This document shows, piece after piece, positions 5,264 through 60,632 of a stretch of 64,000 bases of DNA. The notes below the pieces were generated by a model. The model made no database searches. It worked only from the letters and a program-made list of their open reading frames with translations, and had not been told where the DNA came from. This DNA is from an uncultured Actinomycetota bacterium. GTDB taxonomy: Bacteria; Actinomycetota; Actinomycetes; Mycobacteriales; CADCTP01. Location of the stretch: NCBI GenBank assembly GCA_963770145.1, contig CAVYOJ010000002.1, positions 39,839 through 103,838 on the forward strand. Reading direction: 5' to 3'. The position numbers were made by a program, and so were the translations under genes. Numbering within the stretch: position 1 is the stretch's first letter; each line of letters opens with the position of its first letter.

Positions 5264-5814
5264 GCGGCTACGACGACGGGCGACCCTACGACGAGCGGGG
5301 CTACCCACAGTCTCCCTACGACCAACGCGGATATCCCGGCGGCCCGCCGGCGTCCGGACCGCCGGCCCGGGTCACGGTCAACGCCGGCCGGCTGTGGGCG
5401 GCCGGCGTCGCCACCGCGCTGGTCTGCGCGCTGATCGGGCTGGTGGGGGTGCTGGTGGTCCGGGCCGTCTTCAACGTCGCCCTCTACGCGCCGGAGTCGG
5501 CCAGCGCGGTCGGGGACATCGACACCGGCCTGCTCTGCCTGGTCGCGGCGGGCGCCGCCCTGGTCGCCACCGGCCTGGTGCACCTGCTGCTGCTGAGCAC
5601 CCCGCGGCCGCTGGCCTACTTCGGCTGGATCGTCGGGTTGGGCACGCTGGCCGCCGTGGTGGTGCCGTTCCTGTCCGTCAGCCCGCTGTCGGTCGCGGTC
5701 GCCATGGCGGTGATCCACCTGATCATCGGGCTGGCGATCGGCACGCTGATCTCCGGCGCTGCCCGCGCCGCCACCCGCAGTCCCGCCGGCGGCCCCAGCT
5801 ACGACCTGCACTAG
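5260..5814 (+). CDS. Pro/Tyr-rich N-terminus + 4-TM membrane protein, unknown function
   Basis: ATGA overlap with the previous gene. MSGYDDGRPYDERGYPQSPYDQRGYPGG followed by four hydrophobic helices. In frame with ORF 4258-5814. Confidence 0.6.
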   Translation: MSGYDDGRPYDERGYPQSPYDQRGYPGGPPASGPPARVTVNAGRLWAAGVATALVCALIGLVGVLVVRAVFNVALYAPESASAVGDIDTGLLCLVAAGAALVATGLVHLLLLSTPRPLAYFGWIVGLGTLAAVVVPFLSVSPLSVAVAMAVIHLIIGLAIGTLISGAARAATRSPAGGPSYDLH

Positions 5815-25988: not shown

Positions 25989-26030
25989 CGGTCGACCCGG
26001 AGTCTCGGCCAGCGGAGCGGCGGGCGGGCC

Positions 26031-26090
26031 GTCGACGGACCGGTCGACGGCCCGGTCGACGGCCCGGTCGACGAATCGGTCGACGGAGCG
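26031..26090. repeat. five tandem 12-bp units GTCGACGGNCCG (SalI-site palindrome core)
   Basis: GTCGAC at 26031, 26043, 26055, 26067 and 26079, plus a solitary copy at 25991. The array lies between the ACAD stop (26124) and the CoA-transferase GTG (25988). Confidence 0.85.
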
Positions 26091-26123
26091 CCGGCCGGGC
26101 CGGCCGGCGGAGTGCCGGCGTGG

Positions 26124-27284
26124 TCACCGGCCGCTCACCGGGTGCCGCGCGACCAGCTGGCGGGCGATCACCCCGCGCTGGATCTCGTTCGTACCCTCGC
26201 CGACGATCATCAGCGGCGCGTCCCGGAAGTAGCGCTCGACGTCGAACTCCGTGCTGTAGCCGTAGCCGCCGTGCACGCGGACCGCGTCCAGCGCGATCTT
26301 CATCGCGGTCTCCGAGGCGAACAGCTTCGCCATGCCGGCCTCCAGGTCGGCCCGCGACCCCGAGTCGTACACCCGGGCGGCGTGCAGGACGAGCTGGCGG
26401 GCCGCGGCGAGGCCGGTCGCCATGTCGGCGAGCAGGTTGCCGACCGACTGGTGCTCCCAGATCGGCCGGCCGAAGCTCTCCCGCTGCTGGGCGTACCGCA
26501 GCGAGTCCTCCAGCGCGGCCTGCCCGACCCCGACCGCCCGGGCCGCGACCTGGATCCGGCCGATCTCCAGCCCGCGCATCATCTGCCCGAACCCGCGGCC
26601 CTCGACGCCGCCGAGCAGCGCCGACGCCGGCACCCGGAAGTCGTCGAAGGCGAGCTCGCAGCTCTCCACGCCCTTGTAGCCGAGCTTCGGCAGGTCACGG
26701 GAGACGGTGAAACCGGGCCCGGGCTCGGCCAGCAGGACGCTGATCCCGCGGTGCGGCGGGTCGGCGGCCGGGTCGGTCTTGCACAGCAGCGCGACGAGCT
26801 GGGACCGGCGGGCGTTGGTGATCCACATCTTCGACCCGTTCACCACGTACGCGTCGCCGTCGCGGCGAGCCGTGGTGCGCATGGCCTGCAGGTCCGACCC
26901 GCCACCGGGCTCGGTGAGCGCCATCGTCGCCCGCACCTCGCCGGTCGCCATCCGCGGCAACCAGCGGTCCTTCTGCTCCTCGGTCCCGTACGCGAGCAGC
27001 AGCTTGGCGACCACGGTGTGCCCGCCCATGGCGCCGGCCAGCGACATCCAGCCGCGCGCGAGCTCCTCGGTCACCGCGGCGTAGCAGGGCGTCGAGACGG
27101 CCGCGTCGCCCCACGGCGCCGGGATCGCGAGCCCGAAGACGCCGAGCTCTTTCATCCGCTCGATGAGCTCCTCCGGGTACGTGTCGGCGTGCTCGAGCTC
27201 CCGCACCACCGGCTTCACGTCCCGGTCGACGAACTCCCGCACCAGCGCGACGATCGCGGCCTCGTCCTCGCTCAACTCGGTCAT
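26124..27284 (-). CDS. acyl-CoA dehydrogenase
   Basis: Intact 386 aa. ALTEPGGGSD, KMWITN, C-terminal GGYGYSTEFDVERYFRDAPLMIVGEGTNEIQ. Confidence 0.9.
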   Translation of the reverse strand: MTELSEDEAAIVALVREFVDRDVKPVVRELEHADTYPEELIERMKELGVFGLAIPAPWGDAAVSTPCYAAVTEELARGWMSLAGAMGGHTVVAKLLLAYGTEEQKDRWLPRMATGEVRATMALTEPGGGSDLQAMRTTARRDGDAYVVNGSKMWITNARRSQLVALLCKTDPAADPPHRGISVLLAEPGPGFTVSRDLPKLGYKGVESCELAFDDFRVPASALLGGVEGRGFGQMMRGLEIGRIQVAARAVGVGQAALEDSLRYAQQRESFGRPIWEHQSVGNLLADMATGLAAARQLVLHAARVYDSGSRADLEAGMAKLFASETAMKIALDAVRVHGGYGYSTEFDVERYFRDAPLMIVGEGTNEIQRGVIARQLVARHPVSGR

Positions 27285-27288
27285 GCCG

Positions 27289-27934
27289 TCAGTCTGTACG
27301 GCCCAGCCCCGCCTCCCGGGCCCGGACGATCGCCTGCCCGCGCTCGGCGACCTGCAGCTTGGTGAGGATGTTCGACACGTTGTTGGCCACGGTCTTCGTG
27401 GAGAGGAACAGCTTCTGCCCGATCTGGGCGTTGGTCAGCCCGGCCGCGACCCCGTCCAGGATCGCCCGCTCCCGCTCGGTGAGCTGCGGGAACGGTACGT
27501 CCGGGAGGCTCGGTCCGGTCGCCAGCCAGCGGCTGAGCCGGCGGGCGAGCGCCGCCCCGAACACCGCCGTGCCCGGCCGCCGCCGACCGGATCGCGGTCA
27601 CGATGTCGGCGCCGTCCGCCCCCTTGAGCAGGTAGCCGGAGGCGCCGGCGGCGACCGCGGCGAACACCGTGTCGTCGTCCTCGAACATCGTCAGCACCAG
27701 CACCGCGGTCTCCGGTCGCTGCGCGCGGATCTCCCGCGTCGCCTCGATGCCGTGCAGACCGGGCATCTGCAGGTCCATCACCACGACGTCCGGCGCCAGT
27801 TCGGCGGCGAGCCGCACCACCTCGGTCCCGTCCGCGGCCTCGCCGAGCAGAGTGATCCCGTCGACGCCGGTGAGCACCGCCCGCAGCCCCTGCCGGACCA
27901 GCGGGTGGTCGTCCGCGATGAGCACGCTGGTCAC
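27289..27934 (-). pseudogene. NarL/LuxR-family response regulator, one +1 frame break (about 27570)
   Basis: Receiver domain VLIADDHPLVRQGL..VVVMDLQMPG (frame of ORF 27281-28243). HTH LTERERAILDGVAAGLTNAQIGQKLFLSTKTVANNVSNILTKL (ORF 27289-27564). GTGA overlap with the kinase. Confidence 0.85.
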
Positions 27935-33843: not shown

Positions 33844-36133
33844 GTGAGCATCCTCGGGACCCGCGTGCTCCGGACCGAAGATCCGAAGTTCCTCACCACG
33901 GGCGGCGAGTACACCGAGGACCTGGTGGACGACCGGCTCGCCGGCGCGGTGCACGTCTTCTTCGTCCGCTCCCCGCTCGCGCACGCCCGGATCACCGGCA
34001 TCGACCTCGACGCGGTCCGGGCCACGCCCGGCGTGGTCGCCGCGTACACCGCCGCCGACCTGGCCGACGTCGACCCGATCGCGCCGATGCCCGGCATGAC
34101 CGCCGGGATGACCCAGACCCTGCTCGCCACCGACACGGTCCGGTACGTCGGCGAGGCGGTCGCGATCGTCGTCGTCGAGGACCCGTACCAGGGCGAGGAC
34201 GTGGTCGAGCTGGTCGGCGTCGACTACGACCCGCTGCCCGCGCGTGGTCGACCCGCGGGACGCGGCCAGGGACGAGACGCTGGTGTTCCCCGCGGCCGGC
34301 ACGAACACGGTGATCACCTACGGCGAGGAGCCGGACGAGCACCTCTTCGACGACTGCGACGTCGTGGTCACCCGGACGATCCTCAACCAGCGGGTCGCGC
34401 CGGCGCCGATGGAGGGCCGTGCCGCCGCGGCCGTGTGGGGCGAGGACGGCCGGCTGACCGCCTGGATCCCCAACCAGGGCGCCCAGGGCAGCAGGGCCAC
34501 GCTGGCCAAGATGCTCGGCCTCGACCGGGACCGGGTGCGGGTGATCACCCCGGACGTGGGCGGCGCGTTCGGGGCGAAGTTCGGCGCCGACCCCGAGCAC
34601 GCCCTCGTCGCCTGGGTGGCCCGCGCGGTCGGCCGGCCGGCCCGGTGGAGCGAGACCCGCTACGAGAACCTGCTCGGGATGACCCACGGCCGGGCCCAGG
34701 TCCAGACCGTGACGATCGGCGGCCGGCGGGACGGCCGGGTCCTCGCGTACCGGCTGGAGGTGCTGCAGGACGCCGGCGCCTACCCGCGGATGGGCGCGTT
34801 CCTGCCGTCGCTGACCCGGCTGATGACCCCGGGCACGTACGACTTCGCCAAGGTCGAGTCGTTCGCACGCTCGGTGGTCACCACCACGACGCCGATCGGC
34901 GCGTACCGGGGCGCGGGGCGGCCGGAGGCGACCGCCGCGATCGAGCGGGCGATGGACCTGTTCGCGGCCGAGATCGGGATGGACCCGGCCGAGGTACGCC
35001 GGCGCAACCTGCTCGCCCCGTTCGCCGAGCCGCACCGCAACGGCTTCGGCGCCCTGTACGACAGCGGCGACTTCCCGGCCGCGCTGGAGAGGGCGCTGGA
35101 GGCGGCCGGGTACGACGAGCTGCGCAAGGAGCAGGCCGAGCGCCGCGCCCGCGGCGACGTGGTCCAGCTCGGCATCGGGCTGGCCAGCTACGTCGAGATC
35201 ACCGGCGGCGGGGGCGAGTCCGGCGCGCCCAACGAGAACGCCACGATCGAGGTGCACCCGGACGGCTCGGCCACGATCCTGACCGGCGCCTCGCCGCACG
35301 GTCAGGGGCACCAGACCGCGTTCGCGATGCTGGCCAGCGAGGAGCTCGGCATCCCGGTCGAGAAGATCACCCTCAAGTGGGGCGACACCGACCTGGTCCC
35401 CCGCGGCGGCGGCACCGGTGGCTCGCGCAGCCTGCAGCAGGGCGGGGCCGCGGTCCGGCAGGCGTCCCGGGAGCTGCTCGACGTGGCCAGGGAGCGGGCC
35501 GCCGACGCGCTCGAGGCCGACCCGGCCGACCTGCGCTTCGACCCGCAGCGGTCGGCGTTCACCGTGGCCGGCGTGGCCCAGGCCGCGGTCTCGCTGGGTG
35601 AGCTGGCCGAGACCGAGCGGCTGTTCGTGCACACGGTCTTCACCGCGCCCGGGGCGACGTTCCCGTTCGGCGCGCACGTCGCGGTGGCGGAGGTCGACAC
35701 CGAGACCGGCCAGGCCGTGCTGCGCCGGCTGGTCGCGGTCGACGACGCGGGCACGGTGCTCAACCCGCTGCTCGCCGAGGGTCAGCGGCACGGCGGGATC
35801 GCCCAGGGCGCCGCGCAGGCGCTGCTGGAGGAGGTCGTCTACGACGCCGACGGCAACCCGCTGACCGCGAGCTTCGCCGACTACCCGTTCCTGTCGGCGA
35901 CCGAGGTGCCCAGCTTCGAGCTGGTCGACATGGCCACGCCGACGACGTACAACCCGATGGGGGTGAAGGGGATCGGCGAGGCCGGCAGCATCGGCGCCAC
36001 CCCGGCCGTGCAGAACGCGGTGATCGACGCGGTCGCGCACCTCGGCGTCCGGCACATCGACATGCCCACCTCGCCGCGCACGGTCTGGCGGGCCCTCCGC
36101 GATGCGAGCGACGGCGAAGGGAGCGGGCGATGA
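33844..36133 (+). pseudogene. molybdopterin-dependent hydroxylase large subunit (form-II CoxL-like), one +1 frame break (about 34240)
   Basis: VSILGTRVLRTEDPKFLTG.. Active-site loop reads PIGAYRGAGRPEA (the AYRGAGR type, not the VAYRCSFR type). ORFs 33814- and 34244-36133. Confidence 0.85.
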
Positions 36134-36593
36134 AGGTCGAGATCACCGTCAACGGCGAGAGCCGGGTGGACGAGATCGAGCCGCGGCTGCTGCTGGTGCA
36201 CTACCTGCGCGAGGTGTGCGGGCTGCGGGCGGCGAACGTCGGCTGCGACACCACCTCGTGCGGCGCCTGCACGGTGCTGCTCGACGGCGACGTCGGTGAA
36301 GTCGTGCACGGTGCTGGCCGCGCAGGCCGAGCGGGCGCGCGGTCACCACGGCCGAGGGACTGTCCGGTGCGGACGGACAGCTGCACCCGGTGCAGCAGGC
36401 GTTCCGGCAGGAGCACGGGCTGCAGTGCGGCTTCTGCACGCCCGGCATGGTGATGGCGACCGTCGGGCTGCTGGCCGAGAACCCGCACCCGACCGAGCAG
36501 GAGGTCCGGGAAGGCCTGGAGGGCAACTTCTGCCGGTGCACCGGCTACCACAACATCGTCCGGGCGGTGCTGTCCGCGGCCGGTGAGCGATGA
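36130..36593 (+). pseudogene. [2Fe-2S] small subunit (CoxS-like), two +1 frame breaks (about 36295 and 36345)
   Basis: [13 protein letters not shown] (ORF 36130-), KSCTVLA (36296 frame), [21 protein letters not shown] (36390-36593). Confidence 0.85.
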
Positions 36594-37408
36594 TCCCCTC
36601 GCCGTTCGAGTACGTCCCGGCCGGGTCGGCGGCCGAGGCGGTCGACCTGCTGCGCCAGCACGGCGACGACGCCAAGCTGCTCGCCGGCGGCCACTCGTTG
36701 CTGCCGATGATGAAGGTGCGGCTGGCCGCGCCGTCGGTGCTCGTCGACATCGGCGCGATCCCGGAGCTGTCGTACGTCCGGGTCGCCGACGGGCAGCTCG
36801 CCATCGGGGCGGCGACCACGCACCAGGCGGTGGCGACGTCGCCGGAGGTGCGGTCGCAGGTCCCCTTGCTGGCCTGGTCGGCCGGTCAGGTCGGCGACCC
36901 GCAGGTGCGCCACCGCGGCACGATCGGCGGCTCGCTGGCGCACGCCGACCCGGCCGCCGACCTGCCCATGGCACTGTCCGCTGTGGACGGTCGGGTGGTC
37001 GTGCTCGGCCCGTCCGGGCAGCGCGAGATCGGCGCGGACGAGTTCTTCCAGGGCTACTTCGAGACCGCGCTGGCCCCGGACGAGATGATCGTCGAGGTGC
37101 GGATGCCGGTGCGGCCGGGGCAGCCGTGGGGCTACCAGAAGTTCACCCGGCGGGCCAACGACTGGGCGATCGTCGGGGTCGCGGCGGTGGGCGGGCGGGT
37201 GGCGCTGGCCAACATGGGCCCGGCGCCGGTACGGGCGCTGGCCACCGAGCAGGCGGTCGCCGCCGGCGCCGACGCGACCGAGGCCGCCCGGCTGGCCGCC
37301 GAGGAAGCCGACCCGGCCGAGGACATGCACGCCGACGCCGCCTACCGCCGCCACCTGGCCCAGGTCCTCACCAAGCGCGCCCTCATCTCCGCCGGCATCC
37401 CCGCCTGA
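36590..37408 (+). CDS. FAD-binding medium subunit (CoxM-like)
   Basis: Intact 272 aa. [42 protein letters not shown] overlap with the small subunit. Confidence 0.85.
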
Positions 37409-37426
37409 CGCGCCGCCCGGCAGGGG

Positions 37427-37816
37427 TCAGCGGCCGGTCAGCGGATCGAACAACCGCAGCTCCGGGTCGATCCGGCGCAGGTCCTCCGGGTCGCTGGTCA
37501 CGACCGAGTGTCCGCGCTGTCGCGCGCAGACGACGACCGAGACGTCGACCACGTCTCGGGCGCCGGTCTCGGCGCACAGCTTCCCGACGGCGAGCGCGAC
37601 CGAGCGGTCGAGCTGCACCACCTCGACCAGCGGCGAGCCGAGCAGCCTCGCCAGCCGGGCCTGCCGGGCGGAGGCCCGCCAGACCTGGGCGAGCACGCCG
37701 GCCGGCACGGCCAGCGGAACCCGCTCGGCGAGCGCGACCCGCACCAGCTCGCGCATGTACGGACTACCCGACTCCAGTGCGATCAAGGCGCCCGCGTCCA
37801 GCGTCGTCCCGCTCAC
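37427..37816 (-). CDS. vapC: PIN-domain toxin
   Basis: 129 aa. N-terminal TLDAGALIA, internal acidic residues (DVVDVSVV, VVTSDPEDL). GTGA overlap with the upstream antitoxin. Confidence 0.75.
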   Translation of the reverse strand: MSGTTLDAGALIALESGSPYMRELVRVALAERVPLAVPAGVLAQVWRASARQARLARLLGSPLVEVVQLDRSVALAVGKLCAETGARDVVDVSVVVCARQRGHSVVTSDPEDLRRIDPELRLFDPLTGR

Positions 37817-38166
37817 TTCTCCCGCGAACCGTCCGAAGTGGACTGCCGGCGGCCCGAGCCGGTGGCGTGCGGCATCCTGGCTCTCGAACCGGTTGCGGTG
37901 CGCCGCCTCGGCGCGGCCTTCGGTCCGGACGGATCACTCTGCAGCGCGCGGCGAGCCCACGCCCGGTGCTCGTCCGTAGCCGGCTCCTGCGTCTCGTCCT
38001 CGTCGAGCAGTTGGAGCAGCTCGTCCTCCGCGGACCGGCGGGCCAGCGCCTCCGACACGTACGCCGAGACCGAGGGCGCCCTGCCCTCGGCGACGGCTGC
38101 CCGCGCAGCCTCCACCTGCTCGTCGGGCAGGCTCACGGCGATCTTCGTGGTCATACCAGCGATCAT
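37813..38166 (-). CDS. vapB: ribbon-helix-helix antitoxin with a long basic tail
   Basis: MTTKIAVSLPDEQVEAARAAVAEGRAPSVSAYVSEAL is typical of RHH antitoxins. The start is at 38166 or 38154. Confidence 0.65.
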   Translation of the reverse strand: MIAGMTTKIAVSLPDEQVEAARAAVAEGRAPSVSAYVSEALARRSAEDELLQLLDEDETQEPATDEHRAWARRALQSDPSGPKAAPRRRTATGSRARMPHATGSGRRQSTSDGSREK

Positions 38167-38190
38167 ACCGCCGCCGGAGATCCGGCCCGG

Positions 38191-39270
38191 TCAGGCCTCG
38201 GCGAGGACGGCGACCAGGTCGGCGAGGGCCTGGGCGGAGTGGCCGGCGACGAGGGCGTCCACGTACGGGAGGGCGGCGAGCATGCCGGCCGTCTCCGGGG
38301 TGAACCCCTCCTTGCCCTTGTGCGGGTTGACCCAGACCACGGCGTGGGCGAGCCGGCGCAGCCGGGCCGCCTGCTGGCCGAGCAGCTCGGCGCCGCCGCG
38401 CTCCCAGCCGTCGGAGAAGATCACCACGACCGCGCTGCGGGCGGCGCCACGCTGGCCCCACCGGTCCAGGAACGCCTGCAGCGACTCGCCGAGCCGGGTG
38501 CCGCCGCTCCAGTCCGGCACGGTCTGCGCGGCCGCCTGCAGCGCCGCGTCCGGGTCGCGCAGCCGCAGCGCCCGGGTCACCCGGGTCAGCCGGGTGCCGA
38601 CCGTGAAGACCTCGGTCGCGAACGGGCGGACCCGGACCGCGGCGTGCGCGAACAGCAGCAGCCAGTCCGCGTACGGCGCCATCGACCCGCTCACGTCGAC
38701 CAGCAGGACCAGCCGGCGCGGCTTCTCCCGCCGCCGCCAGTGCGCCAGCACGATCGGCTCGCCGCCGGCCCGCAGCATCGTGCGCATGGTCCGCGCCGGG
38801 TCGACGCCGCTGCGCCCGCCGGCGCGCCGCCGCACCGACCGGCGGGTGCCGACCGAGGGCGCGAGCAGCCCGATCAACCGGCGTACCTCGGCCCGCTCGG
38901 CGGCGGTGAGCGCGGCGACGTCCCGGGTGCGCAGGGTCTCCAGCGCGGTCGCGGCGACCCGCTCGGCCCGGCCCGCGGCGCCCTCGCCGCTCTCCCCCGC
39001 GCCACCGAGCGTCCGCACCGTGCTCTCGACCGCTGCCGGTCGCGGCCCGGGCCCGAACCACTCGGCGAACGCGGCGTCGAACCGCGGCAGGTCGTCCGGC
39101 TCGGAACACAGCGACAGCCGGGTGGTCCAGTAGACCTGCGCCGGGTCGAGCAGGTCGACGTGGTCGAGCGCGCCGGCCGCGGCGACCACCCGGGACGCGT
39201 CGGCGGCCACCCCGCGCTCCCGCAGCGACCGCGCGAACGCGGTCAGCTCGGCGACGGGATCGGCGATCAC
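38191..39270 (-). CDS. VWA-domain protein (CoxE-like)
   Basis: Intact 359 aa. MIDAS LLVDVSGSM. VVVIFSDGWERG. WVNPH. Confidence 0.8.
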   Translation of the reverse strand: MIADPVAELTAFARSLRERGVAADASRVVAAAGALDHVDLLDPAQVYWTTRLSLCSEPDDLPRFDAAFAEWFGPGPRPAAVESTVRTLGGAGESGEGAAGRAERVAATALETLRTRDVAALTAAERAEVRRLIGLLAPSVGTRRSVRRRAGGRSGVDPARTMRTMLRAGGEPIVLAHWRRREKPRRLVLLVDVSGSMAPYADWLLLFAHAAVRVRPFATEVFTVGTRLTRVTRALRLRDPDAALQAAAQTVPDWSGGTRLGESLQAFLDRWGQRGAARSAVVVIFSDGWERGGAELLGQQAARLRRLAHAVVWVNPHKGKEGFTPETAGMLAALPYVDALVAGHSAQALADLVAVLAEA

Positions 39271-39346
39271 GGCGCCACGCCGGCCGGCCGGTCACCCCGG
39301 CCGTCCGAACCGGCCGACCGGCTCCGGCGCCGCCCGCGTCACCGGC

Positions 39347-40219
39347 TCACCCCAGCCGGGCCAGCAGCCCGGGCAGCACGTCGCGCTCGGCCGTCACCTG
39401 GTCCTCGCGATACTTCAGCAGCGCCCCCAGCGTCGCCCGCACCGCCGGCAGGCTCAGCTCGGTCGCCCCGAGCAGCCGCAGCGCGGTCGCCCAGTCGATC
39501 GCCTCGGCGATCCCCGGCGGCTTCACCAGCCCGGCCGCCCGCATCGCCGCGACCCCGGCCGCGACCTGCCGGGCCAGCCGGTCGGCGACCTCGGGCTGGT
39601 GCCGGCGGATGATCTCCACCTCGCGCTCCAGGTCGGGGTGGTCGACCCAGTGGTAGAGGCAGCGCCGCTTGAGCGCATCGTGCAGCTCCCGGGTCCGGTT
39701 GGAGGTGAGCACCACGATCGGCGGCTCGGCCGGCCGGATCGTGCCCAGCTCCGGGATCGTCACCGCGTTGTCGGCCAGCACCTCGAGCAGGAACGCCTCG
39801 AACTCGTCGTCGGCCCGGTCGATCTCGTCGACCAGCAGCACGGCCGGGCTGACCTCGAGCGCCCGCAGGATCGGCCGGGCGATGAGGAACCGCCGGTCGT
39901 ACACCGACCGCTCGTCGCCGGCACCGTCCTCGGCCGCCCGCAGGTGCAGCAGCTGGCGCGGGAAGTCCCAGTCGTACAGGGCCTGGCTGGCGTCGATGCC
40001 CTCGTAGCAGGACAGCCGGACCAGCTCGGCCCCGACGACGTCGGCGAGCGCCTGGGCCAGCGCGGTCTTGCCCACCCCGGGGTCGCCCTCGAGCAGCAGC
40101 GGCCGGCGCATCCGGATCGCCAGGTACGCCGCGGTCGCCACCCCCTCGTCCGGCAGGTAGCCGGCCGCGTCCAGGGCGGCGGACAGGGCCGGGATGCCGG
40201 CGAACTCCGGGTACGTCAC
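39347..40219 (-). CDS. MoxR-type AAA+ ATPase (CoxD-like)
   Basis: Walker A EGDPGVGKT, Walker B LLVDEIDRA. The start is uncertain: GTG at 40219 or ATG at 40294. Confidence 0.8.
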   Translation of the reverse strand: MTYPEFAGIPALSAALDAAGYLPDEGVATAAYLAIRMRRPLLLEGDPGVGKTALAQALADVVGAELVRLSCYEGIDASQALYDWDFPRQLLHLRAAEDGAGDERSVYDRRFLIARPILRALEVSPAVLLVDEIDRADDEFEAFLLEVLADNAVTIPELGTIRPAEPPIVVLTSNRTRELHDALKRRCLYHWVDHPDLEREVEIIRRHQPEVADRLARQVAAGVAAMRAAGLVKPPGIAEAIDWATALRLLGATELSLPAVRATLGALLKYREDQVTAERDVLPGLLARLG

Positions 40220-40304
40220 CCCTCCAGCATCACACGCCGGGACGCTCAGCTGCCGTCGGGGAAGCCGCCGCGGTGGCCCGGACGGCGAGGTCACGCCCCC
40301 GACG

Positions 40305-49719: not shown

Positions 49720-50467
49720 GTCGATCCCTCCGCAGCTTGGTCCGGTACGAGTACAGCTCGGGCAGGAAGTGGCTGACCGCCAGCTCGACCGGACGGCCGG
49801 CGGTGTCCGAGTAGAGCCGGTCGATGCGCAGCAGCGGGTCGCCGGCCGGGCAGCCGAGCTGGGCCGCCGTCGTCGGGTCCGCGGCCGCGACCGTGATGCT
49901 CTGGTCGGCCTCGGCGATCGGCGCCGGCAGCCGGGCGTCCAGCAGCCCGATGATCGTCGTCTCGCTGCTCGCCCCGGCCGTGGTCAGCTCGGGCACGCCG
50001 GCGAGCACCGCGCCGACCGCCGGCGGCACCGAGACCGTGGTCACGCAGAACGGGGCGCCGTCGTGCGAGCGGCGGAACGTGAGGCTGTGCACGACGTCGT
50101 CGGGCAGCCGCAGCCGGCTCGCCGCGGTCACGTCGACCAGCCGGCGCAGCGGCGCGGTGACCTCCATCCGGGTGTCCACCGACAGCCCCATGAGGTCGTC
50201 GATCGACCCGAACTGGCGCAGGTACGCCTCCTCCCGGCGGGTCACGAACGTCCCTCGCCCGGGCACCCGGTAGACCATCCCCTCGGCGACGAGGTCCTGG
50301 AACGCGCGCCGCACGGTCTGCCGGCTCACCCCGTGCCGCTCGGCCAGCTCCGCCTCGGTCGGCAGCCGCCGGCCGTCGGCGTAGTCGCCCTGCAGGATCC
50401 GGTTGCGCACCTCCCGGGCCACGACCGTGTACGTGCTCTCCCGGCGCCCGTCCGCCACCGTCGGCAC
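49712..50467 (-). CDS. GntR-family regulator (HutC/UTRA subfamily)
   Basis: Intact 251 aa. LPTEAELAERHGVSRQTVRRAFQDLVAEGMVYRVPGRGTFV plus a UTRA-like C-terminal half. Confidence 0.85.
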   Translation of the reverse strand: MPTVADGRRESTYTVVAREVRNRILQGDYADGRRLPTEAELAERHGVSRQTVRRAFQDLVAEGMVYRVPGRGTFVTRREEAYLRQFGSIDDLMGLSVDTRMEVTAPLRRLVDVTAASRLRLPDDVVHSLTFRRSHDGAPFCVTTVSVPPAVGAVLAGVPELTTAGASSETTIIGLLDARLPAPIAEADQSITVAAADPTTAAQLGCPAGDPLLRIDRLYSDTAGRPVELAVSHFLPELYSYRTKLRRDRHA

Positions 50468-50470
50468 CGT

Positions 50471-51461
50471 TCAGGCCAGCGCGGCGACGAAGCGCCAGTC
50501 GAGGACGTCGGTCGGCTCGGCCCCGTCCCGCCGGGCCCGGACCCGGGAGCGCAGGTGGGCCAGGCCGCCGCCGGTCGGCAGCGGCTCGGTCCGCTCCACC
50601 GTGACCGTGCTGGTCAGCGTGTCCCCCTCGCGGACCGGCGCGAGGTGGTCGCAGCCGTGCCAGCCGACGACCGTGAGCAGGTCCGGCAGCGCCCGGACGG
50701 CCTGGTGCAGCGCCAGCCCGATCGTGTGGCCGCCGTAGACCAGCCGCCCGGACGGGCCGGCGTCGTGGTGCACCCTGGCCACGTTGCCGGTGAGCCGGGC
50801 CAGCTCCGGCGCGGAGGTGACCACGTCGCCGCCGGCGACCACGTGGACGTCGCCGGCCCGGACGCCGTCGAAGTGCGGCCCCGGCCGGGCGGCCCGGTAG
50901 GCGCCGAGGTCCCAGCGCGCGGTGACGGACGCCAGCTCGTCGACCGGACGGATCGCGGCCCACCGAGGTCAGGTCGTCGGCGAGCCCGGTCTGCGTGGAC
51001 GCGTCCCGCAGCGGCAGCATCGCGCACCGCCAGAAGTCCAGCACCGGCCGCCCGTACTGGTCGTCGGTGCCGATCCGCAGCGCGACGAGCCCGGTCGGGG
51101 GGCGCCCCGGCCGCCGCGAGTTCTGCCGGAGGCCGACGACCTCCGTCACGGTCCGCAGCGAGTCGCCGAGCCGGGGCGCCCGATGGAACACGACGCCGCG
51201 GTAGAAGAGGTTCGCCACCACCGTGTGGGTGGCCACAGTGGACTGTCCGATCGCGACGTCCCAGACCAGGTTGGGCGCGGCCAGCACGCCGTCGCCGAGC
51301 ACCTGCCGGGACAGCAGGTGCGCTCCGGCCAGTGGCAGCCGGCCGCCGACCACCGCCTGGTGCGCGGCCGCCATCCCTTCGGTCAGCGTCACCGGCGCGG
51401 CCGGGAACCGCTGGCCGACCTGGAGATCCTCGAAGTACGGCCCGTCGACCACGATCTCCAC
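50471..51461 (-). pseudogene. double hot-dog MaoC-like (R)-hydratase/dehydratase, one +1 frame break (about 50960)
   Basis: VEIVVDGPYFEDLQVGQRF.. (frame of ORF 49704-51896) continues as AIRPVDELASV..VVAGGDVV..GGHTIGLAL in ORF 50471-50842. GGGAGG RBS before the GTG at 51461. Confidence 0.75.
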
Positions 51462-51581
51462 CCGTCCACCTCCCAGCCGAAAATATACGGCCAAAGTCCG
51501 CCAGCGCGACCGGGGTGTGTCGGGAAGCTCGTTGACACAGGCGAAGGCACGCCAAAAAATGGCCGTACAAATACGGAGGTG

Positions 51582-52809
51582 ATGATGTCGGCTCCGACGG
51601 CGGACCAGCCGCTGGCCGGACTGCGGGTCGTCGAGGTGTCGACCTTCGTCGCCGCCCCGCTCGGCGGGATGACGCTGGCCCAGCTCGGCGCCGAGGTGGT
51701 CCGGGTCGACCCGCTCGGCGGCGCCGCCGACCACACCCGCTGGCCGCTGGCCGAGTCCGGGACCAGCCTCTACTGGGCCGGGCTGAACAAGGCGAAGCGC
51801 TCGGTCGACGGTCGACCTGCGCTCGGCCGCCGGGCAGGAGCTGGTCACCCGGCTGATCGCCGACTCGGGTCCGGGCGGCGGGATCGTGCTCACCAACTCG
51901 GTCGGCCGGGGCTGGCTCGGCTACCGGGCACTTGCCGAGCGCCGGCCGGACGTCATCCACCTGCAGATCGAGGGCCACCCGGACGGCAGCGCCGCGGTCG
52001 ACTACACGGTCAACGCCGGGCTCGGCTTCCCGCTGCTGACCGGGCCGGCCGGGCACGCCGACCCGGTCAACCACGTGCTGCCGGCCTGGGACATCGCCTG
52101 CGGGCTCTACGCGGCGATCGGCCTGCTCGGCGCCGAGCGCCGCCGCGCCCGCACCGGCGAGGGCAGCGCGCTGGCCGTCGCGCTCTCCGACGTCGCCCTG
52201 GCCACCGCCGGCAACCTCGGCTTCCTGGCCGAGGCCGAGCTGGGACAGCGCCGGCCGCGGCTGGGCAACTACCTCTACGGCGGCTTCGGCCGCGACTTCA
52301 CCGCCCGGGACGGCACCCGGTTCATGCTCGTGACGCTGACCGCCCGGCACTGGCGCGACCTCGTCGCCGCGACCGGGCTCGCGGAGCCGGTGACCGCGCT
52401 GGAGAAGGCGCTCGGCGTCGACTTCGCCGAGGAGGGCGACCGGTACGAGTGCCGCGAGCTGCTGGCCGCGCTGCTGGACCGCTGGTTCGCCGACCGCGCC
52501 GGCACCGAGGTCAGCGCGGTGCTGGGCCGCACGTCGGTGCTGTGGACGGTCTACCGCTCGGTCGCCGAGCTGGTCGGCAGCGACGAGGTCCGGGCCAACC
52601 CGATGATGCGGGTGGTCGACCAGCCCGGCGTCGGCCACCACCTGGCGCCGGGGTCGCCGATCCGGGCCGGCGAACGGACGGTAGCCCGGGCGCCCGTGCT
52701 CGGCGAGCACACCGACACCGTGCTGGCCGGCTGGCTCGGGCTGACCGACCCGGAGATCCGCGAGCTGCACGACCGCGGCGTGATCCAGTCCGCACCGAGG
52801 GAGGGCTGA
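51582..52809 (+). pseudogene. family III (CaiB/BaiF) CoA-transferase, one +1 frame break (about 51800)
   Basis: LAGLRVVEVSTFVAAPLGGMTLAQLGAEVVRVDP (frame of ORF 50922-). The remainder is in ORF 51886-52809, ending PVLGEHTDTVLAGWLGL. Confidence 0.85.
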
Positions 52810-52812
52810 GGC

Positions 52813-54008
52813 GTGGGCCGACTCGCGCGCACCGACGGGCTGACCGACGTCCAGGAGCAGATCCTGGCGACCGTCCACGACTTCACCGAGCGGGAGATCA
52901 TCCCGCACGCGCAGGCGCTCGAGCACGCCGACGAGTATCCGCAGGCCATCGTCGACGGGATGCGCGGAGCTCGGCCTGTTCGGCCTCACGATCCCGGAGG
53001 AGTACGGCGGGCTGGGCGAGTCCCTGCTCACCTACGCGCTGGTGGTCGAGGAGCTGGCCCGCGGCTGGATGAGCGTGTCCGGGATCGTCAACACCCACTT
53101 CATCGTCGCGTACATGCTGCTGCGGCACGGGACCGACGAGCAGAAGCAGTCGCTGCTGCCCCGGCTGGCGACCGGCGAGGTGCGCGGCGCGTTCTCGATG
53201 TCCGAGCCCGGCTGCGGCTCGGACGTCTCGGCGATCCGGACGAAGGCGGTCCGGGACGGTGAGGGCCGACTACGTGGTCGACGGCCAGAAGATGTGGCTG
53301 ACCAACGGCAGCACGGCCAACCTCGTCGCGGTGCTGGTGAAGACCGACGAGGGCGCCGAGTCGGTCTACCGGAACATGACCACGCTGCTGGTGGAGAAGC
53401 CGACCGGCTTCGGCGAGGTCGCGCCCGGGCTCACCGTGCCCGGCAAGATCGAGAAGATGGGCTACAAGGGCGTCGACACGACCGAGCTGCTGTTCGCCGG
53501 CTATCGCGTGCCGGCCGCCGCGGTGCTCGGCGGCACGCCCGGGCGCGGCTTCTACCAGATGATGGACGGGGTCGAGGTCGGCCGGGTCAACGTGGCCGCG
53601 CGCGGCTGCGGGGTCGCGCTGCGCGCGTTCGAGCTCGCGGTCCGGTACGCGCAGCAGCGGGAGACGTTCGGCAAGCGCATCGCCGACCACCAGGCCGTGC
53701 TGTTCCGGCTGGCCGACATGGCCACCAAGGTCGAGGCGGCGCACCAGATGATGGTGCGCTCCGCCCGCACCAAGGACTCCGGCCGCCGCAACGACCTCGA
53801 GGCCGGGATGGCGAAATACCTGGCCTCCGAATACTGCCGGGACGTGGTCGAGGACTCCTTCCGCATCCACGGCGGCTACGGGTTCTCGACGGAGTACGAG
53901 ATCGAGCGGCTCTACCGGGAGGCGCCCATGCTGCTCATCGGCGAGGGCACGGCCGACATCCAGCGGATGATCATCGGCCGCCGGATCCTCGAGGACTACC
54001 GGCTCTGA
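52813..54008 (+). pseudogene. acyl-CoA dehydrogenase, two +1 frame breaks (about 52960 and 53260)
   Basis: Paralogue of 26124-27284. SMSEPGCGSD, KMWLTNG, GGYGFSTEYEIERLYREAPMLLIGEGTADIQ. ORFs 52813-, 53042- and 53259-54008. Confidence 0.85.
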
Positions 54009-54104
54009 CGCTCCCGTTGCCGCACCCACTTGCGCAGCGCGGTCGGCGCCAGCACACGCCGCCGACCTGGCTCGGCGGCCAGCCGGTCCACCGCGTCGGA
54101 GCGG

Positions 54105-55605
54105 TCAGCCGGGCAGCTGGGGCAGGATCGCGGCGGTGATCGCCAGCTCGCCGGCCGCGGTGGGGTGGAACGGGGCCGGGTCGCGCATGCCCTGCACCCA
54201 CGGCTGGTCGGTGCACAGCTCGTGCCCGTCGAACCGGGGCTGCACGACCGCGAACCCGAAGCCCTGGGCGCCCTGCTCGAGCACCTCGTTCATCCGGGCG
54301 AGCTCGACCCGGAGCGGGCGCGATCTTCTGCTTGACCTTGTCGTCCTGGTTGTCCTTGCCCGGGTCCGGCCCGAACCCGTAGCCGGGCGGGCCGCCCGCC
54401 TCGGCCTGCGGGTCCTGCAGGGCGGGGCAGTCGAAGCTCGAGCCGAACGGGTCGTAGTACTTGGTCACGATCACCTGCGGGTGCGTGGGCAGGTCGGACA
54501 GCTGCTGCAGCAGCTGGGCGTACTGGATCTTGAACGCGTCGAGCCGGCTCTGGAACAGCTTGTTGCTGGCCTCGTCGTCGCAGCGGGGCAGGCCGTAGCA
54601 GTAGCGCAGGAAGTCCGACCAGCCGACGTCGTTGGCGCCGATGCTGACCACGACGACCTTCGCCGACTGCACCGAGCGCAGCACGCCGACCTGCGGCGGC
54701 AGCGTCCGCCCGGCCGCCGGCTGCGGGCCGAGCAGCCCGTCGGTCACGGTGGCCGAGCTGCAGGCCAGGTTGAGCACGCTGACCCCGGCGATCGACTGCA
54801 GCGAGGTCGCGTACGTGTCGGCGGAGCGCTGGCAGGCGATGTCGTCCCGGGTCGGCTTCTGGATCGGGGTGTTGCCGATGCCGGCCGCGGTGGAGTCGCC
54901 GATGACGACCACGTCGGTGTCCGCTGCGCTTCGGGCCGACCGCCGCCGGCACCGGGGCCAGGTTGGCCGTGCCGACCAGGTCGGACAGCGAGGTGACCGA
55001 GCCGAGCTGGTGCACCGCGGTCCGGACGGTCAGCGCGGTGAAGCCGAGCGTCATGACCAGCGGCGGCGGCGACGCTGGCCCCGAGCAGGCCGAGGTGCGC
55101 GGCCCGGCTGCGCCGGTGGTCCCGGCCGACCAGCGCCACCGCGCCCGCCGTCACCAGGTAGAGCACGCCGCCGAGCAGGCCGGCGGTCGCCACCAGCCAG
55201 CCGAAGTAGCGCGTCCAGCCGTCCGCGAGCTGCCGGCCGACCTCCGCCGACCCGGTCGCGACCGTGCGGCGGCCGCCGGCCGAGCCGGACTGGATGAACG
55301 CGGCCGCGTCGTCGTTGCGGTTGAACCGCTGCCAGACGATCAGCGGCCGGATCGGGCCGTCGAAGTGCTGGATCGTCTCGACGATGCCCTCGCCGAACAG
55401 GTCCGCCTCGCCCGGGCCCGGACAGGCCGAGGTCGGGGCTCGGCGGCACGGCGCCGACCTGCACGCTCTGGCCGAACACCGAGACGCCCGCCTTCGGCGT
55501 GACCGCCAGGGCGAGCGTCATCGCGGCCAGCGCGACGGCCAGCACGAGTGCCAGCCGGCCGGCCCAGATCGCCGGCGGTCTCCGGCGCCAGTCCGCGAAG
55601 CTCAC
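54105..55605 (-). pseudogene. membrane-anchored SGNH/GDSL hydrolase, four +1 frame breaks
   Basis: N-terminal TM (ORF 55051-55605), a second TM block (54744-55193), SGNH block I VVIGDSTAAGIGN and block III SIGANDVGW (53971-54912), and the C-terminus in 54105-54293. Confidence 0.7.
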
Positions 55606-55715
55606 ACTCCCAGGGTTACATCCGCGCCGGAGTGCCCTCCGCTAGAGACGGCGGCCGGAGACGGCGACGCCGCCGCGGCGCGAACGCCACGACGGCGACT
55701 GCCGACTGCGTCGGG

Positions 55716-55922
55716 CTAGTCCTCGACCTTGGTCGGGCCGCCCTCGAGAAGCCCCCGTACCTCGGACTCCTTGTATCGGCGGTGTCCGCCGAGAGTGCGG
55801 ATCGACGTGAGCTTTCCTGCCTTTGCCCACCGCGTCACGGTCTTGGGGTCGACACGGAACATCGTGGCGACCTCTGCTGGCGTGAGCAGCGGTTCGGCTT
55901 CGGTCGTCTGGCGCGTGGTCAT
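55716..55922 (-). CDS. bldC: BldC-type MerR-like developmental DNA-binding protein
   Basis: 68 aa. EPLLTPAEVATMFRVDPKTVTRWAKAGKLTSIRTLGGHRRY matches the core I recall for Streptomyces BldC almost exactly. Confidence 0.85.
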   Translation of the reverse strand: MTTRQTTEAEPLLTPAEVATMFRVDPKTVTRWAKAGKLTSIRTLGGHRRYKESEVRGLLEGGPTKVED

Positions 55923-56063
55923 GGCTCGTCCCTTCCTGCCACGTTGGCCGCTGGACCCCGGTTCGTCCCTCGACCACAGTCCACTATGCACCATTCGACC
56001 GCATCGCTCAACGGCCTGCCCGAGTTATACGTTCTCGATCTGTCGGAAAACGCCCCGTGCGCC

Positions 56064-56981
56064 TTAGTTTGACGACTCCACAGAGTAGGCAATCCGCCAC
56101 CGATCGATTACGCGATCATAGGCGGCCGAGGCAAGCTTGGTGTCTCCGCGCTGCAACGCTGCCAGTGCCTCGGCCACGTCGCCGGCCGAGTCGTCGGTGC
56201 GCAGGCTCGCCTCGGCGCACAGGTCGACCAGACCCAGGTAGTCGAGCTCGACCAGCGAGCGCGGGTGGAACTCCTCCAGCCAGCGCCCGAGCGCCTCCAC
56301 CGAGGGAACGGTCGGCCCGTCCGGCAGCGCCTTGCGCAGCACCTGCAGCGCCCGGGCCACCCGGCGGCGGGCCTTCGCCATCGCCGTCCGGTAGACCAGC
56401 GATCGGCTGATCGCGATCCCTTCGGGCGCGCCGCCGCCGTCACCGCCGGACGCACGATCGCCGAACGAGCCCGACCTGCCGAACTCGGTCCCGGCCGGGC
56501 CGAGCTGCAGCCGGCGCTCCTCCCGGTCGAACAGCACGAACCAGCGCACCGGCACCGACCAGCGGTGCAGCTGCACGTGCGCGCGCCGGGCCGGGTGCTC
56601 GGCCAACCAGCGCTGCTGCTCGGTCGAGGCGAGCTCGACCTCCGCGTCGGGCAGCACCGCGCGGGCGACCTCGGGTGGCAGCGCCGAGCGGGTCTCCACC
56701 GCCGCCTCCCAGCACCGCAGCTCGGTCCGCAGCGGGCAGATCAGCAGCCCAGACTCGCCCCGCAGCACCGCGGCATGCTCGCCGGCGTCGCCGGGCCGGG
56801 GCACCGCGGCGGCCCGCCGGCAGGCGCCGACCAGCCCGAGCACGCGCTCCCGGCGGGCACCGGCCTGCGCCGAGGGCACGGCGGGCGACTGCGCGTACTG
56901 CTGCCACCGGCGCCGCTCCTCGACGTCGAAAGCGGCCAGCGGCTCGTACACGCGCAGCTCTGCGGCGTACGGCGGGGTCAC
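56064..56981 (-). CDS. conserved actinobacterial hypothetical protein
   Basis: Intact. [14 protein letters not shown]... The start is uncertain (GTG at 56981 chosen). It occupies the slot between vdh and bldC, as I recall for Streptomyces. Confidence 0.55.
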
Positions 56982-57114
56982 CGTTCGATCGTCGCATGAT
57001 CGCAACCATCCCGGGAGGCGACACCGATCTAAGGTGAGCGGCGGAGCCATCGCTCCGCCACCTGCGGCACGCGGGCGATCCCCGCAACCCGCCCGGAGAC
57101 GACAGCGGAACCTC

Positions 57115-58206
57115 ATGACCAGGGAGTGCAGCGTGACCGTCTTCGCCACCGACCACGAGGAAGTGGTCTTCTGCCACGACCGGGCCTCCGGCCTGCGCGC
57201 GATCATCGCGATCTACTCGACCGCGCTCGGCCCGTCGCTCGGCGGCACCCGGTTCTACCCGTACGAGACCGAGGCCGACGCGCTGGCCGACGTGCTCAAC
57301 CTGTCCCGCGGGATGGCGTACAAGAACGCGCTCGCCGGCCTCGACCACGGCGGCGGCAAGGCCGTCATCTGGGGCGACCCGACCACGGACAAGACCGAGG
57401 CGCTGCTGCGGGCGTACGGGCGGTTCGTCGAGTCGCTCGGCGGCCGGTACGTGACCGCCTGCGACGTCGGCACGTACGTGCAGGACATGGACGTGGTCGC
57501 GCGCGAGTGCCGGTTCGTCACCGGCCGGTCCCCGTCCGAGGGCGGCGCCGGCGACTCGTCGGTGCTCACCGCCTGGGGCGTCTTCCAGGGCATGCGGGCC
57601 TGCGCCGAGCGGCAGTGGGGCACCGCCTCGCTGGCCGGCCGCCGGGTGGGCATCGCCGGGGTCGGCAAGGTCGGCCGGCACCTGGTCGACCACCTGGTCG
57701 ACGACGGCGCCGAGGTCGTGGTGACCGACGTCTCCGCCGCCGCGGTCGCCGCGGTGATCGCCGAGCACCCGCAGGTCCGCACCGTCGCCGACGCCGACGC
57801 CCTGGTCCGCACTCCGCTGGACGTCTACGCGCCGTGCGCGCTCGGCGGGGCGCTGTCCGACGCCGTCGTCGACGTGCTCACCGCACCGGTCGTCTGCGGC
57901 GCCGCCAACAACCAGCTCGACCACCCCGGGGTGGAGAAGATCCTGGCCGACCGCGGCGTGCTCTACGCGCCGGACTACGTCGTCAACTCCGGCGGTGTGA
58001 TCCAGGTCGCAGACGAGTATCGGGGCTACGTGGCCGAGCGGGCCCGGACCAAGGCGACGGCGATCTTCGACACCACCCGGAGCATCTTCGCCACGGCGGC
58101 CGAGGAAGGCGTCCCACCTGCGGTTGCGGCCGATCGGCTGGCCGAGCGGCGGATGGCCGAGGTCGGTCGGCTGCGCGGGATCCTGGTCCCTGGCCGGGAC
58201 CGTTGA
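57115..58206 (+). CDS. vdh: Glu/Leu/Phe/Val dehydrogenase family enzyme, valine dehydrogenase-like
   Basis: Intact. [43 protein letters not shown]. Confidence 0.85.
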
Positions 58207-58443
58207 GCCGGCGCCGTCGGTGAGCCGATGGCGAACGTCCCGGTCGGGAGGCCGGACGGCTGCGGCAGACGGGCCGCGGTCGTTCCGCTGTCCGGGTGAC
58301 CTACGTCGCGTCGCGGGCGCGGCGCCGGTGACGCGACGTGGTACGAGTCGCCCGCGAGTTGTAATCTGGTGCCACGACGATGACCACACTGTGGGGCCGC
58401 CTCGTGCAGGTCGCCCCTTTGTCCTGTGCGAGGGGGTCGAGCC

Positions 58444-58640
58444 ATGGGGCGCGGCCGTGCCAAGGCTAAGCAGCAGAAGGTGGCCCGTGCGTTGAAGTAC
58501 AGCACGCACGACACCGACCTGACTGCCTTGCAGCGCGAGCTCAGAGGCGAGCCGGCCACGAGTCCTCCGTCGGTGGAGACGACGACGTGGACGACGACGA
58601 GTACGACCCCGACGACGACTGGTCCTCCTCGCGCCGCTGA
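58444..58640 (+). pseudogene. DUF3073 small protein, one -1-type frame break (about 58555)
   Basis: MGRGRAKAKQQKVARALKYSTHDTDLTALQRELRG, then the expected acidic tail ESSVGGDDDVDDDEYDPDDDWSSSRR* in the adjacent frame (stop 58638-58640). Confidence 0.75.
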
Positions 58641-58686
58641 CGCGCGCTGAGGTGGACCGGCCACACGGGGCCGGATCGGGCGACCG

Positions 58687-58839
58687 CCAGCCGGAGTGGG
58701 TGCCGACGAGGCGGGCCGGACCGGTGCCGGGGACGAGTCCGCCGGCCATCAGGCCGGCACACCGCGGCCGGTGCAGCGGCCGGACCGTCGGGCAGACGGC
58801 GACCCATGCCACGCCGACCTTCAGCGTGCGCTCGATCTC
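58687..58839 (-). pseudogene. purM: 3' remnant of purM (AIR synthetase); the first ~300 codons expected for PurM are missing
   Basis: EIERTLKVGVAWVAV ... GRGVPA ... ARLVGTHSGW resembles the PurM C-terminus (E-x-x-RT-[FL]-N-M-G-[VI]-G-M; ..LVG.HPG). Only about 330 bp separate the purF catalytic end from the DUF3073 gene. Confidence 0.6.
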
Positions 58840-60478
58840 GGTCGGGCGACCGGCCGGGCCACCAGGTTCAGGTCCGGTCGAGGCCCGGCCGCCCGGTCCG
58901 GCGATCGCGCCCGGCCGCCGGGTGGGGGCGACCGCGGCTCGACGGATTGCGCGGACGAGGTCTCCGGGCCGCGGTCAGCGGTGGCCGGGTCGACGAGCCC
59001 CAGCTCTTCCAGCGTGTCGCCGGACGGGCCGGGCGAGCCGGCGGTGACCGACCGCTCGATGCCCTCCAGCACGTGCTTGCCGACCAGCTCCGGCGCCGGC
59101 AGCGGGATCGGGTAGCTGCCGTCGAAGCAGGCCGTGCACAGCCGGGACGCCGGCTGCTCGCTGGCCCCGACCAGGCCCTCCAGCGAGACGTAGCCGAGCG
59201 AGTCGGCCCCGATCGAGCGGCGGACGCCCTCGACGTCCAGCCCGTTGGCGATCAGCTCGGCCCGGCTGGCGAAGTCGATGCCGTAGAAGCACGGCCACTT
59301 CACCGGCGGCGACGAGATCCGCACGTGCACCTCGAGCGCGCCGGACTCGCGCAGCATCCGGACCAGCGCCCGCTGGGTGTTGCCGCGCACGATCGAGTCG
59401 TCGACGACGACGATCCGCTTGCCCCGCAGCACGTCTCGCAGCGGGTTGAGCTTGAGCCGGATGCCGAGCTGCCGGATCGTCTGCGACGGCTGGATGAACG
59501 TGCGGCCCACGTAGGAGTTCTTGACCAGGCCGAGCCCGTACGGGATGCCGGACTGCTCGGCGAAGCCGATCGCGGCCGGGGTGCCCGACTCGGGCACCGG
59601 GATCACCAGGTCGGCCTCGGCCGGGTGCTCGCGGGCCAGCCGGCGGCCGACCTCGACCCGGGCCGCCTGCACGTTCCGGCCGGCGATCGTGGTGTCCGGC
59701 CGGGCCAGGTAGGCGTACTCGAACAGGCAGCCCTTGGGGGTCGGCTGGGCGAACCGCTCCGAGCGCAGCCCGTCGTCGTCGATCGAGATCAGCTCGCCCG
59801 GCTCGACCTCGCGCACGAACGAGGCGCCGACGATGTCCAGCGCCGCCGTCTCGCTCGCGACCACCCAGCCCCGGTCGAGCCGGCCGAGCACCAGCGGGTG
59901 CACGCCGTAGCCGTCGCGGGCCGCGTAGAGCGTGTGCTCGTCCATGAACACCAGCGAGAACGCGCCGCGCAGGGTCGGCAGCACCGTCATCGCGGCCGCC
60001 TCCACCGACAGGTCCGGGTACGCGGTGAGCAGGCCGGTGATGAGGTCGGAGTCGGTGGTCACGGTGGCGTCGCGGTCACCCCGAGCTTCGCCGCCCGGTC
60101 GGCGAGGTCGGCGGTGTTGACCAGGTTGCCGTTGTGGCCGAGCGCGATGCCCGTCCCGGTCCGCGTGGTGCGGAACGTGGGCTGCGCGTTTTCCCAGGTG
60201 GAGGAGCCGGTCGTCGAGTAGCGGCAGTGCCCGATCGCGATGTGGCCGCGCAGGCTGTCCAGCGTCGGCTCGTCGAAGACCTGGGCGACCAGCCCGAGGT
60301 CCTTGTAGACGACGAGCGCGGAGCCGTCGCTGACGGCGATCCCGGCCGCCTCCTGCCCACGGTGCTGCAGGGCGTAGAGGCCGTAGTAGGTGAGCTTGGC
60401 GACGTCCTCGCCGGGAGCCCAGACGCCGAACACGCCGCACTCCTCGCGAGGTGGCGACTCCTCCGGCACGTCACTCAC
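58821..60478 (-). pseudogene. purF: amidophosphoribosyltransferase; one -1-type frame break in a G-run (about 60075); 3' tail runs into the purM remnant
   Basis: N-terminal nucleophile CGVFGVWAPGE (ORF 60059-60478). PRTase domain VVVDDSIVRGNT and the C-terminal CTACFDGSYP (ORF 58821-60440). Conserved sequence ends near 58990. Confidence 0.85.
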
Positions 60479-60632
60479 TCTACCGGCCGAATCGGGCGGG
60501 GCCGGTGTGACGCCCCGGGCACGGCAGCCCAGAAGCCGCGGCCGACCGCTTGGGGGGATGCGGCCGGCCGCGGGGCCATCACGGTACCTCCGAGTAGGGT
60601 TTGTCGCCCACCTGCCGAATCGAAAGCACTGC

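Follow-up and report, generated by a model that had tools for sequence, protein, structure and literature searches.

The DNA analysed here, a stretch of 64 kb referred to as the window, is actinobacterial with a G+C content of about 74 %. Its minus strand carries, in this order, purQ (truncated by the window end), purL, a DinB/MDMPI-like gene and purF. A DUF3073 gene lies on the plus strand, convergent to purF, and is followed by a gene for a Leu/Val-type dehydrogenase, beyond which are found a DUF8083 gene and a BldC-like HTH gene. The latter (55716-55922, minus strand) encodes a small protein of 68 aa (MerR/HTH_17), whose identical sequence is indexed in 891 blocks of a public assembly collection; this lineage or this gene is therefore very widespread in sequenced samples.

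Six related contigs were found by exact-protein match to the BldC-like protein of the window, and the layout of the locus was derived from a six-way alignment mapped onto window coordinates. Contig L081 (ERZ25039556) is 97.7 % identical to the window and colinear with it across the gap between purF and DUF3073; none of its genes is broken (purQ 218 aa, purL 740 aa, purF 485 aa and DUF3073 65 aa). L086 (ERZ25039569) and L085 are related contigs with fragmented gene calls. L082, L083 and L084 are short-read assemblies, 90-94 % identical, in which an intact purM of 345 aa lies between purF and DUF3073; an intact purM (341-349 aa across all these loci) occupies the same place in L087, L088, L089, L094 and L175 to L177.

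More broadly, purM comes right after purF in 66 of 80 related genomes, many of them with a convergent DUF3073 gene downstream. The purF-purM-DUF3073 synteny on which a preliminary description of this DNA had relied, and of which we take Rv0808-Rv0809-Rv0810c to be the M. tuberculosis version, is thus well founded. The window has the same gene order and orientation as this locus in Mycobacteriales and other actinobacteria (e.g. L082 and L087), and shares with it the overlap of the purF stop with the purM start (GTGA), the convergent DUF3073 gene and the further neighbours (Leu/Val dehydrogenase, DUF8083 and BldC-like HTH genes). In contrast to the intact locus, the purM of the window lacks codons ~13-254 and is untranslatable. 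The features of the region are as follows:

58975 to 60478, minus strand: purF (amidophosphoribosyltransferase), from open reading frames; split by a window-specific 2-nt insertion at about 60074
58975-58977, minus strand: purF stop codon TGA, from the six-way alignment
58979, minus strand: 1-nt gap relative to L081, L086, L085 and L082, from the six-way alignment and the indel list
58943-58978, minus strand: 5' stub of purM, 36 nt, from the six-way alignment and codon projection
58942/58943, minus strand: deletion junction, with ~730 nt of purM absent; alignment columns 226-955 are filled in L082 only
58688-58942, minus strand: 3' remnant of purM, ~255 nt, roughly the last 90 codons, from blastn, nhmmer, tblastn and codon projection
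58641 to 58687, no strand: spacer of 47 nt from the former purM stop to the DUF3073 stop; six-way alignment columns 1234-1281
58444 to 58640, plus strand: DUF3073 gene, convergent to purF/purM, from translation in two frames and Pfam PF11273 on the L081 orthologue

The preliminary description had reported pieces resembling the PurM C-terminus between purF and DUF3073. In a three-frame translation of the minus strand (58560-59200), the peptides that it quoted, i.e. EIERTLKVGVAWVAV, GRGVPA and ARLVGTHSGW, were all found, distributed over two frames. Homology searches agreed with this observation. When intact purM genes from five close relatives were compared with the window using blastn with default scoring, each gave one strong match; that of L087 aligned over nt 851-1037 of 1038 with window positions 58860-58688 (79 % identity, E 1e-35), the remaining purM matches across the window having E values of at least 9e-6. 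A blastn analysis with +1/-1 scoring was discarded, as it returned hundreds of meaningless GC-rich alignments. Further searches used 66 purM genes and PurM proteins taken from related genomes. The top window match of the corresponding DNA profile (nhmmer) was located at 58880-58690 and covered model positions 823-1046 of 1052 (E 5e-4), and the best tblastn match paired residues 289-346 of 346 with positions 58845-58690 (E 5e-5 in a 128-kb search space). Altogether, 173-212 nt of the ~255-nt 3' remnant are clearly alignable.

Two explanations would deprive this relic of biological meaning. According to one of them, the resemblance to purM arose by chance in GC-rich DNA, in an intergenic region without real PurM ancestry. 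Permissive scoring does produce many spurious long alignments on such sequence, and the part from 58899 to 58942 aligns weakly. However, the default blastn match is unique in the window, it stops exactly at the purM 3' end with the expected position and orientation, and the alignment with L083 is colinear from the remnant on into DUF3073. The PurM ancestry of the 58688-58860 stretch is not due to chance, and we give practically no credence to a fortuitous resemblance. According to the other, which the preliminary description had raised for the region 58.5-59.1 kb, an assembly collapse or misassembly would have removed from the contig some 0.7-0.9 kb of purM present in the organism. The window assembly is indeed error-prone, with many small indels. 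Nevertheless, the junction is identical base for base in L081 and L086, two independent assemblies of the same lineage obtained from other samples, and L085 displays a larger, overlapping deletion that encloses it and leaves 13 nt of the purM 5' end and ~170 nt of the 3' end. A repeat search of the region revealed no long flanking repeats able to drive a collapse or to explain the deletion. In addition, the 3' part is devoid of frame and stop codon and is far more diverged than its flanks, which would be unexpected for a live gene. Because L081 and L086 share the junction and the L085 deletion encloses it, the loss is a fixed evolutionary event and not an assembly collapse, which we regard as highly improbable.

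The relic consists of the first 36 nt of purM joined to the last ~255 nt, i.e. 291 nt in all. Alignment to the syntenic region of relatives, as proposed in the preliminary description, revealed an intact purM in L082 and upheld the PurM similarity of the remnant. Compared with the intact 1038-nt purM of L082 (~94 % identical), ~730 nt are absent; divergence makes it possible to place the right edge of the deletion only to within a few tens of nt. The sizes initially put forward have to be revised accordingly: the deletion had been overestimated at 0.85-0.9 kb, and the 150 bp assigned to the remnant correspond to its best-conserved part. The point that no single-base error could account for the reduction of purM stands, since a sub-kilobase deletion is present at the locus. 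The absent codons (~13-254 of 345) comprise the whole AIRS N-domain, including the DGVGTK motif (residues 64-69 of L082 PurM), and most of AIRS_C. A 7-nt GGCCGGC microhomology located near both breakpoints in L082 was not retained, as such a motif is too common at this GC content to count.

At the 5' end, where the purM start GTG overlaps the purF TGA in relatives, the stub retains the start-codon position and ~11 codons matching VTGPEISYAQAG of L082 (alignment columns 190-225); its codon projection reads LSGPETSSAQS. When the window is projected on the L082 codons, 92 full codons are kept, 52 of them with an unchanged residue, and six codons of the 3' remnant are frame-disrupted. The former purM stop TAG has become TGG (58688-58690), and the L081 relic contains an additional in-frame stop. 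Between the window and L081, mismatches reach 7.9 % of aligned positions in the remnant, together with 4 indel events, compared with 0.5 % for DUF3073, 2.2 % for the 3' end of purF and 1.5 % for four genes taken together; dS of the flanking genes ranges from 0.02 to 0.06. The purM remnant evolves without constraint.

With respect to what a functional PurM should contain (Pfam PF00586 AIRS and PF02769 AIRS_C), homology to purM at the orthologous position is present, and both the N-terminal AIRS domain with DGVGTK and a continuous ORF of ~340-350 codons ending in a stop are missing. The traits of a pseudogene are found: close relatives have an intact orthologue at the same locus, and constraint is relaxed relative to flanking genes. 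The locus holds a true purM pseudogene, fixed and with an internal deletion. Features of this kind are ordinary, and the first interpretation of this one as a non-functional remnant left by a sub-kilobase deletion at a conserved locus was correct. Terminator, promoter, repeat and Rfam scans of the region gave no sign of a new function for the remnant, and a literature search for purM pseudogenes in Actinobacteria gave nothing relevant. Deletion-derived pseudogene remnants are exemplified by the decayed genes of Mycobacterium leprae. The relic resembles them in its orthologous position, its truncated and frameshifted state and a rate of change at or above the synonymous one. Unlike M. leprae-type decay, it does not belong to a reduction of the whole genome: the genes on either side of it are undamaged in L081, which is well assembled, and the chromosome of L001 measures ~10 Mb.

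Downstream of the relic, the spacer preceding the DUF3073 stop measures 47 nt in deletion carriers vs 14 nt in L082; its extra ~34 nt (within 58641-58687) hold a short inverted repeat, CCGGCC(N6)GGCCGG. The 5' leader of the DUF3073 gene (58375-58446, plus strand) is near-invariant among relatives that are ~20 % diverged elsewhere. It contains the hairpin CGGGGCCGCC...GGCCGCCCCG, with GAGGGGGTCGAGCC-ATG after it; as the stem does not vary in sequence, covariation speaks neither for nor against it, and no Rfam match was obtained for the hairpin.

A neighbor-joining tree was built from purL, purF, the Leu dehydrogenase gene and the DUF8083 gene. The window forms a group with L081 and L086; outside this group, L085 and the purM-intact L082 diverge at about equal depth, followed by the purM-intact L087, L094 and L088/L089, while L001 and L002 are placed far outside. 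In L001, a complete chromosome of ~10 Mb, purF is followed by 57 nt and then by DUF3073, purM being absent between them. L002 and L006 have unrelated genes after purF, and several loci of Nocardia and of the Rhodococcus group are without purM within 6 kb of purF. Since L001, L002/L006 and the Nocardia/Rhodococcus-group loci also lack a purF-adjacent purM, the gene has been lost from the purF locus at least twice in related soil actinobacteria. These loci resemble the window in that an intact purF is not followed by purM (L001 and L002 possess intact purQ and purL besides); they differ from it in that no purM relic is visible, whereas the relic of the window records the loss event. As in other pseudogene remnants, erosion appears progressive, and the locus offers a snapshot of gene loss: purM is intact in the sister lineage, a 291-nt relic in the window, shorter still in L085 and wholly gone in L001. 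In L081 (1259-1634, upstream of purQ) and in L001 (~5000-5500, upstream of purF), intergenic DNA translates in several frames to repeated peptide-like units, which suggests tandem DNA repeats.

The preliminary description had also attached meaning to frame breaks in purF, purL and purQ. Over ~19 kb, the window differs from L081 by 58 indel events, i.e. about one per 330 nt, nearly all of 1-2 nt and most of them single extra bases; they affect all sorts of genes, which in L081 are intact. The purQ-purF stretch contains five frameshifting insertions that only the window has, none of them being shared by L081, L082 or L087. The four in purQ, purL and purF measure 1-2 nt, the one in the DinB-like gene 7 nt:

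63930: purQ
62424 and 61761: purL
61055: DinB-like gene
60074: purF

Further indels relative to L081 are scattered over the region 45000-64000, e.g. at 55649, 54321 and 53266. DUF3073, whose stop is at 58640, has its frame broken in the same manner by a 1-nt gap at about 58577, and is intact (65 aa) in L081. As regards the purF stop, which had been described as missing, the TGA at 58975-58977 is in frame in L081, L086, L085 and L082; because of the 1-nt gap at 58979, it is out of frame in the window and purF appears to read through to 58821 (gene end GCC TCC TGG TGA in L081 vs GCC ACC GCT GAC in the window). The frame breaks in purQ, purL, purF and DUF3073 and the apparent lack of a purF stop are thus most likely assembly errors. 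The window resembles an unpolished assembly of the long-read type, and no frameshift in it should be trusted.

Substitutions between the window and L081, two carriers of the deletion, tell about selection on the rest of the cluster. In purF, 16 synonymous and 4 nonsynonymous differences were counted (dN/dS 0.09), and in purL 14 and 6, respectively (dN/dS 0.16), where neutrality would give roughly 2.7 nonsynonymous differences per synonymous one; these ratios are based on only 40 substitutions. Values obtained with L085 and L086 were set aside, being inflated by assembly errors of those contigs. After the loss of purM from the locus, purF and purL are under purifying selection among deletion carriers. 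FGAM, the product of PurL, is not known to serve any purpose beyond being turned into AIR by PurM, and AIR is in addition a source for thiamine synthesis. The selection that persists on purL and purF therefore implies that the organism still has AIR synthetase activity, and from this we infer that a functional purM is probably encoded elsewhere in the genome.

Several searches for such a gene were performed, covering the 64-kb window and loci of up to 20 kb from relatives. Within the 64-kb window, tblastn with the 66 PurM proteins matched only the remnant and purL, a paralogous member of the PurM superfamily, so that no second purM was found there. Among eight PurM homologues 70-89 % identical to L082 PurM, whose genomic context was examined (P0027, P0040, P0042, P0043, P0058, P0062, P0092 and P0103), none was relocated; all are purF-adjacent orthologues, with two inserted genes between purF and purM in P0103. 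Likewise, no relocated purM was detected in JGI metagenome contigs (80 loci), where every homologue of at least 57 % identity with enough upstream DNA follows purF.

The latter results would fit a real loss of the de novo purine pathway, and with it of the thiamine precursor derived from AIR. The organism would then be an auxotroph, and the breaks in purQ, purL and purF would be early signs of pathway decay; taken at face value, the window sequence does have frameshifts in these three genes. Several observations argue against this outcome, which had been envisaged if no second purM existed. L081, despite its 97.7 % identity with the window and the same deletion, has intact purQ, purL and purF; the dN/dS values of purF and purL after the deletion are around 0.1, and do not indicate the decay or neutral evolution that would be expected in an auxotroph. 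The frameshifts are specific to the window and occur at similar density in unrelated genes (GDSL lipase, acyl-CoA dehydrogenase). Besides, L001 and L002, which are independently without purM at this locus, keep full-length purQ, purL and purF, and the lineage was assembled from several different samples. We therefore consider auxotrophy unlikely. Even less probable, in our opinion, is that PurM homologues are entirely absent from this lineage and, independently, from L001 and L002, with purQ, purL and purF still under selection. To our knowledge, no alternative to PurM has been described; if that reading were true, AIR would have to be made by a new, non-homologous synthetase or by some other route, and the repeated loss of purM at this locus in related lineages would mark where the non-homologous enzyme arose.

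The history that we favour, with a purM copy killed by deletion and a pathway kept through another locus, can be proposed as follows. The orthologous purM lost an internal segment of ~730 nt in an ancestor that the window, L081 and L086 recently shared, the deletion fusing the first 36 nt of the gene to the last ~255 nt. Deprived of its catalytic N-domain, reading frame and stop codon, the relic is dead, and now drifts as a non-coding stretch flanked by purF and the convergent DUF3073 gene. Selection still keeps the purQ-purL-purF cluster, and AIR synthesis most probably continues via a gene at another place in the genome. The broken frames of nearby genes, as well as the seemingly stop-less purF, would be small indels peculiar to an error-prone assembly. 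As a whole, this reading appears likely to us. That purM was lost repeatedly from this locus, with purQ, purL and purF retained, suggests that AIR synthetase may have a redundant source. The locus also calls for caution in annotation: an automated pathway reconstruction based on it would call the purine pathway incomplete, and the 'frameshifts' in purF, purL and purQ, most likely a matter of assembly quality, would wrongly suggest pathway decay.

Other features were noted in the window. A cluster of the molybdopterin dehydrogenase family (CO dehydrogenase / xanthine dehydrogenase) extends over 34112-41553 and includes a large MoCo-binding subunit, a FAD-binding subunit, a CoxE-like VWA protein and a CoxD-like AAA ATPase; a fragment of an EF-G/RF3-like GTPase adjoins it. 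Genes for an acyl-CoA dehydrogenase and a family III CoA-transferase form two paralogous pairs (24873-27434 and 52000-54040), the two acyl-CoA dehydrogenase genes being ~68 % identical in DNA. Finally, tRNA-Asp(GTC) and tRNA-Phe(GAA) genes lie side by side on the plus strand (45127-45277).
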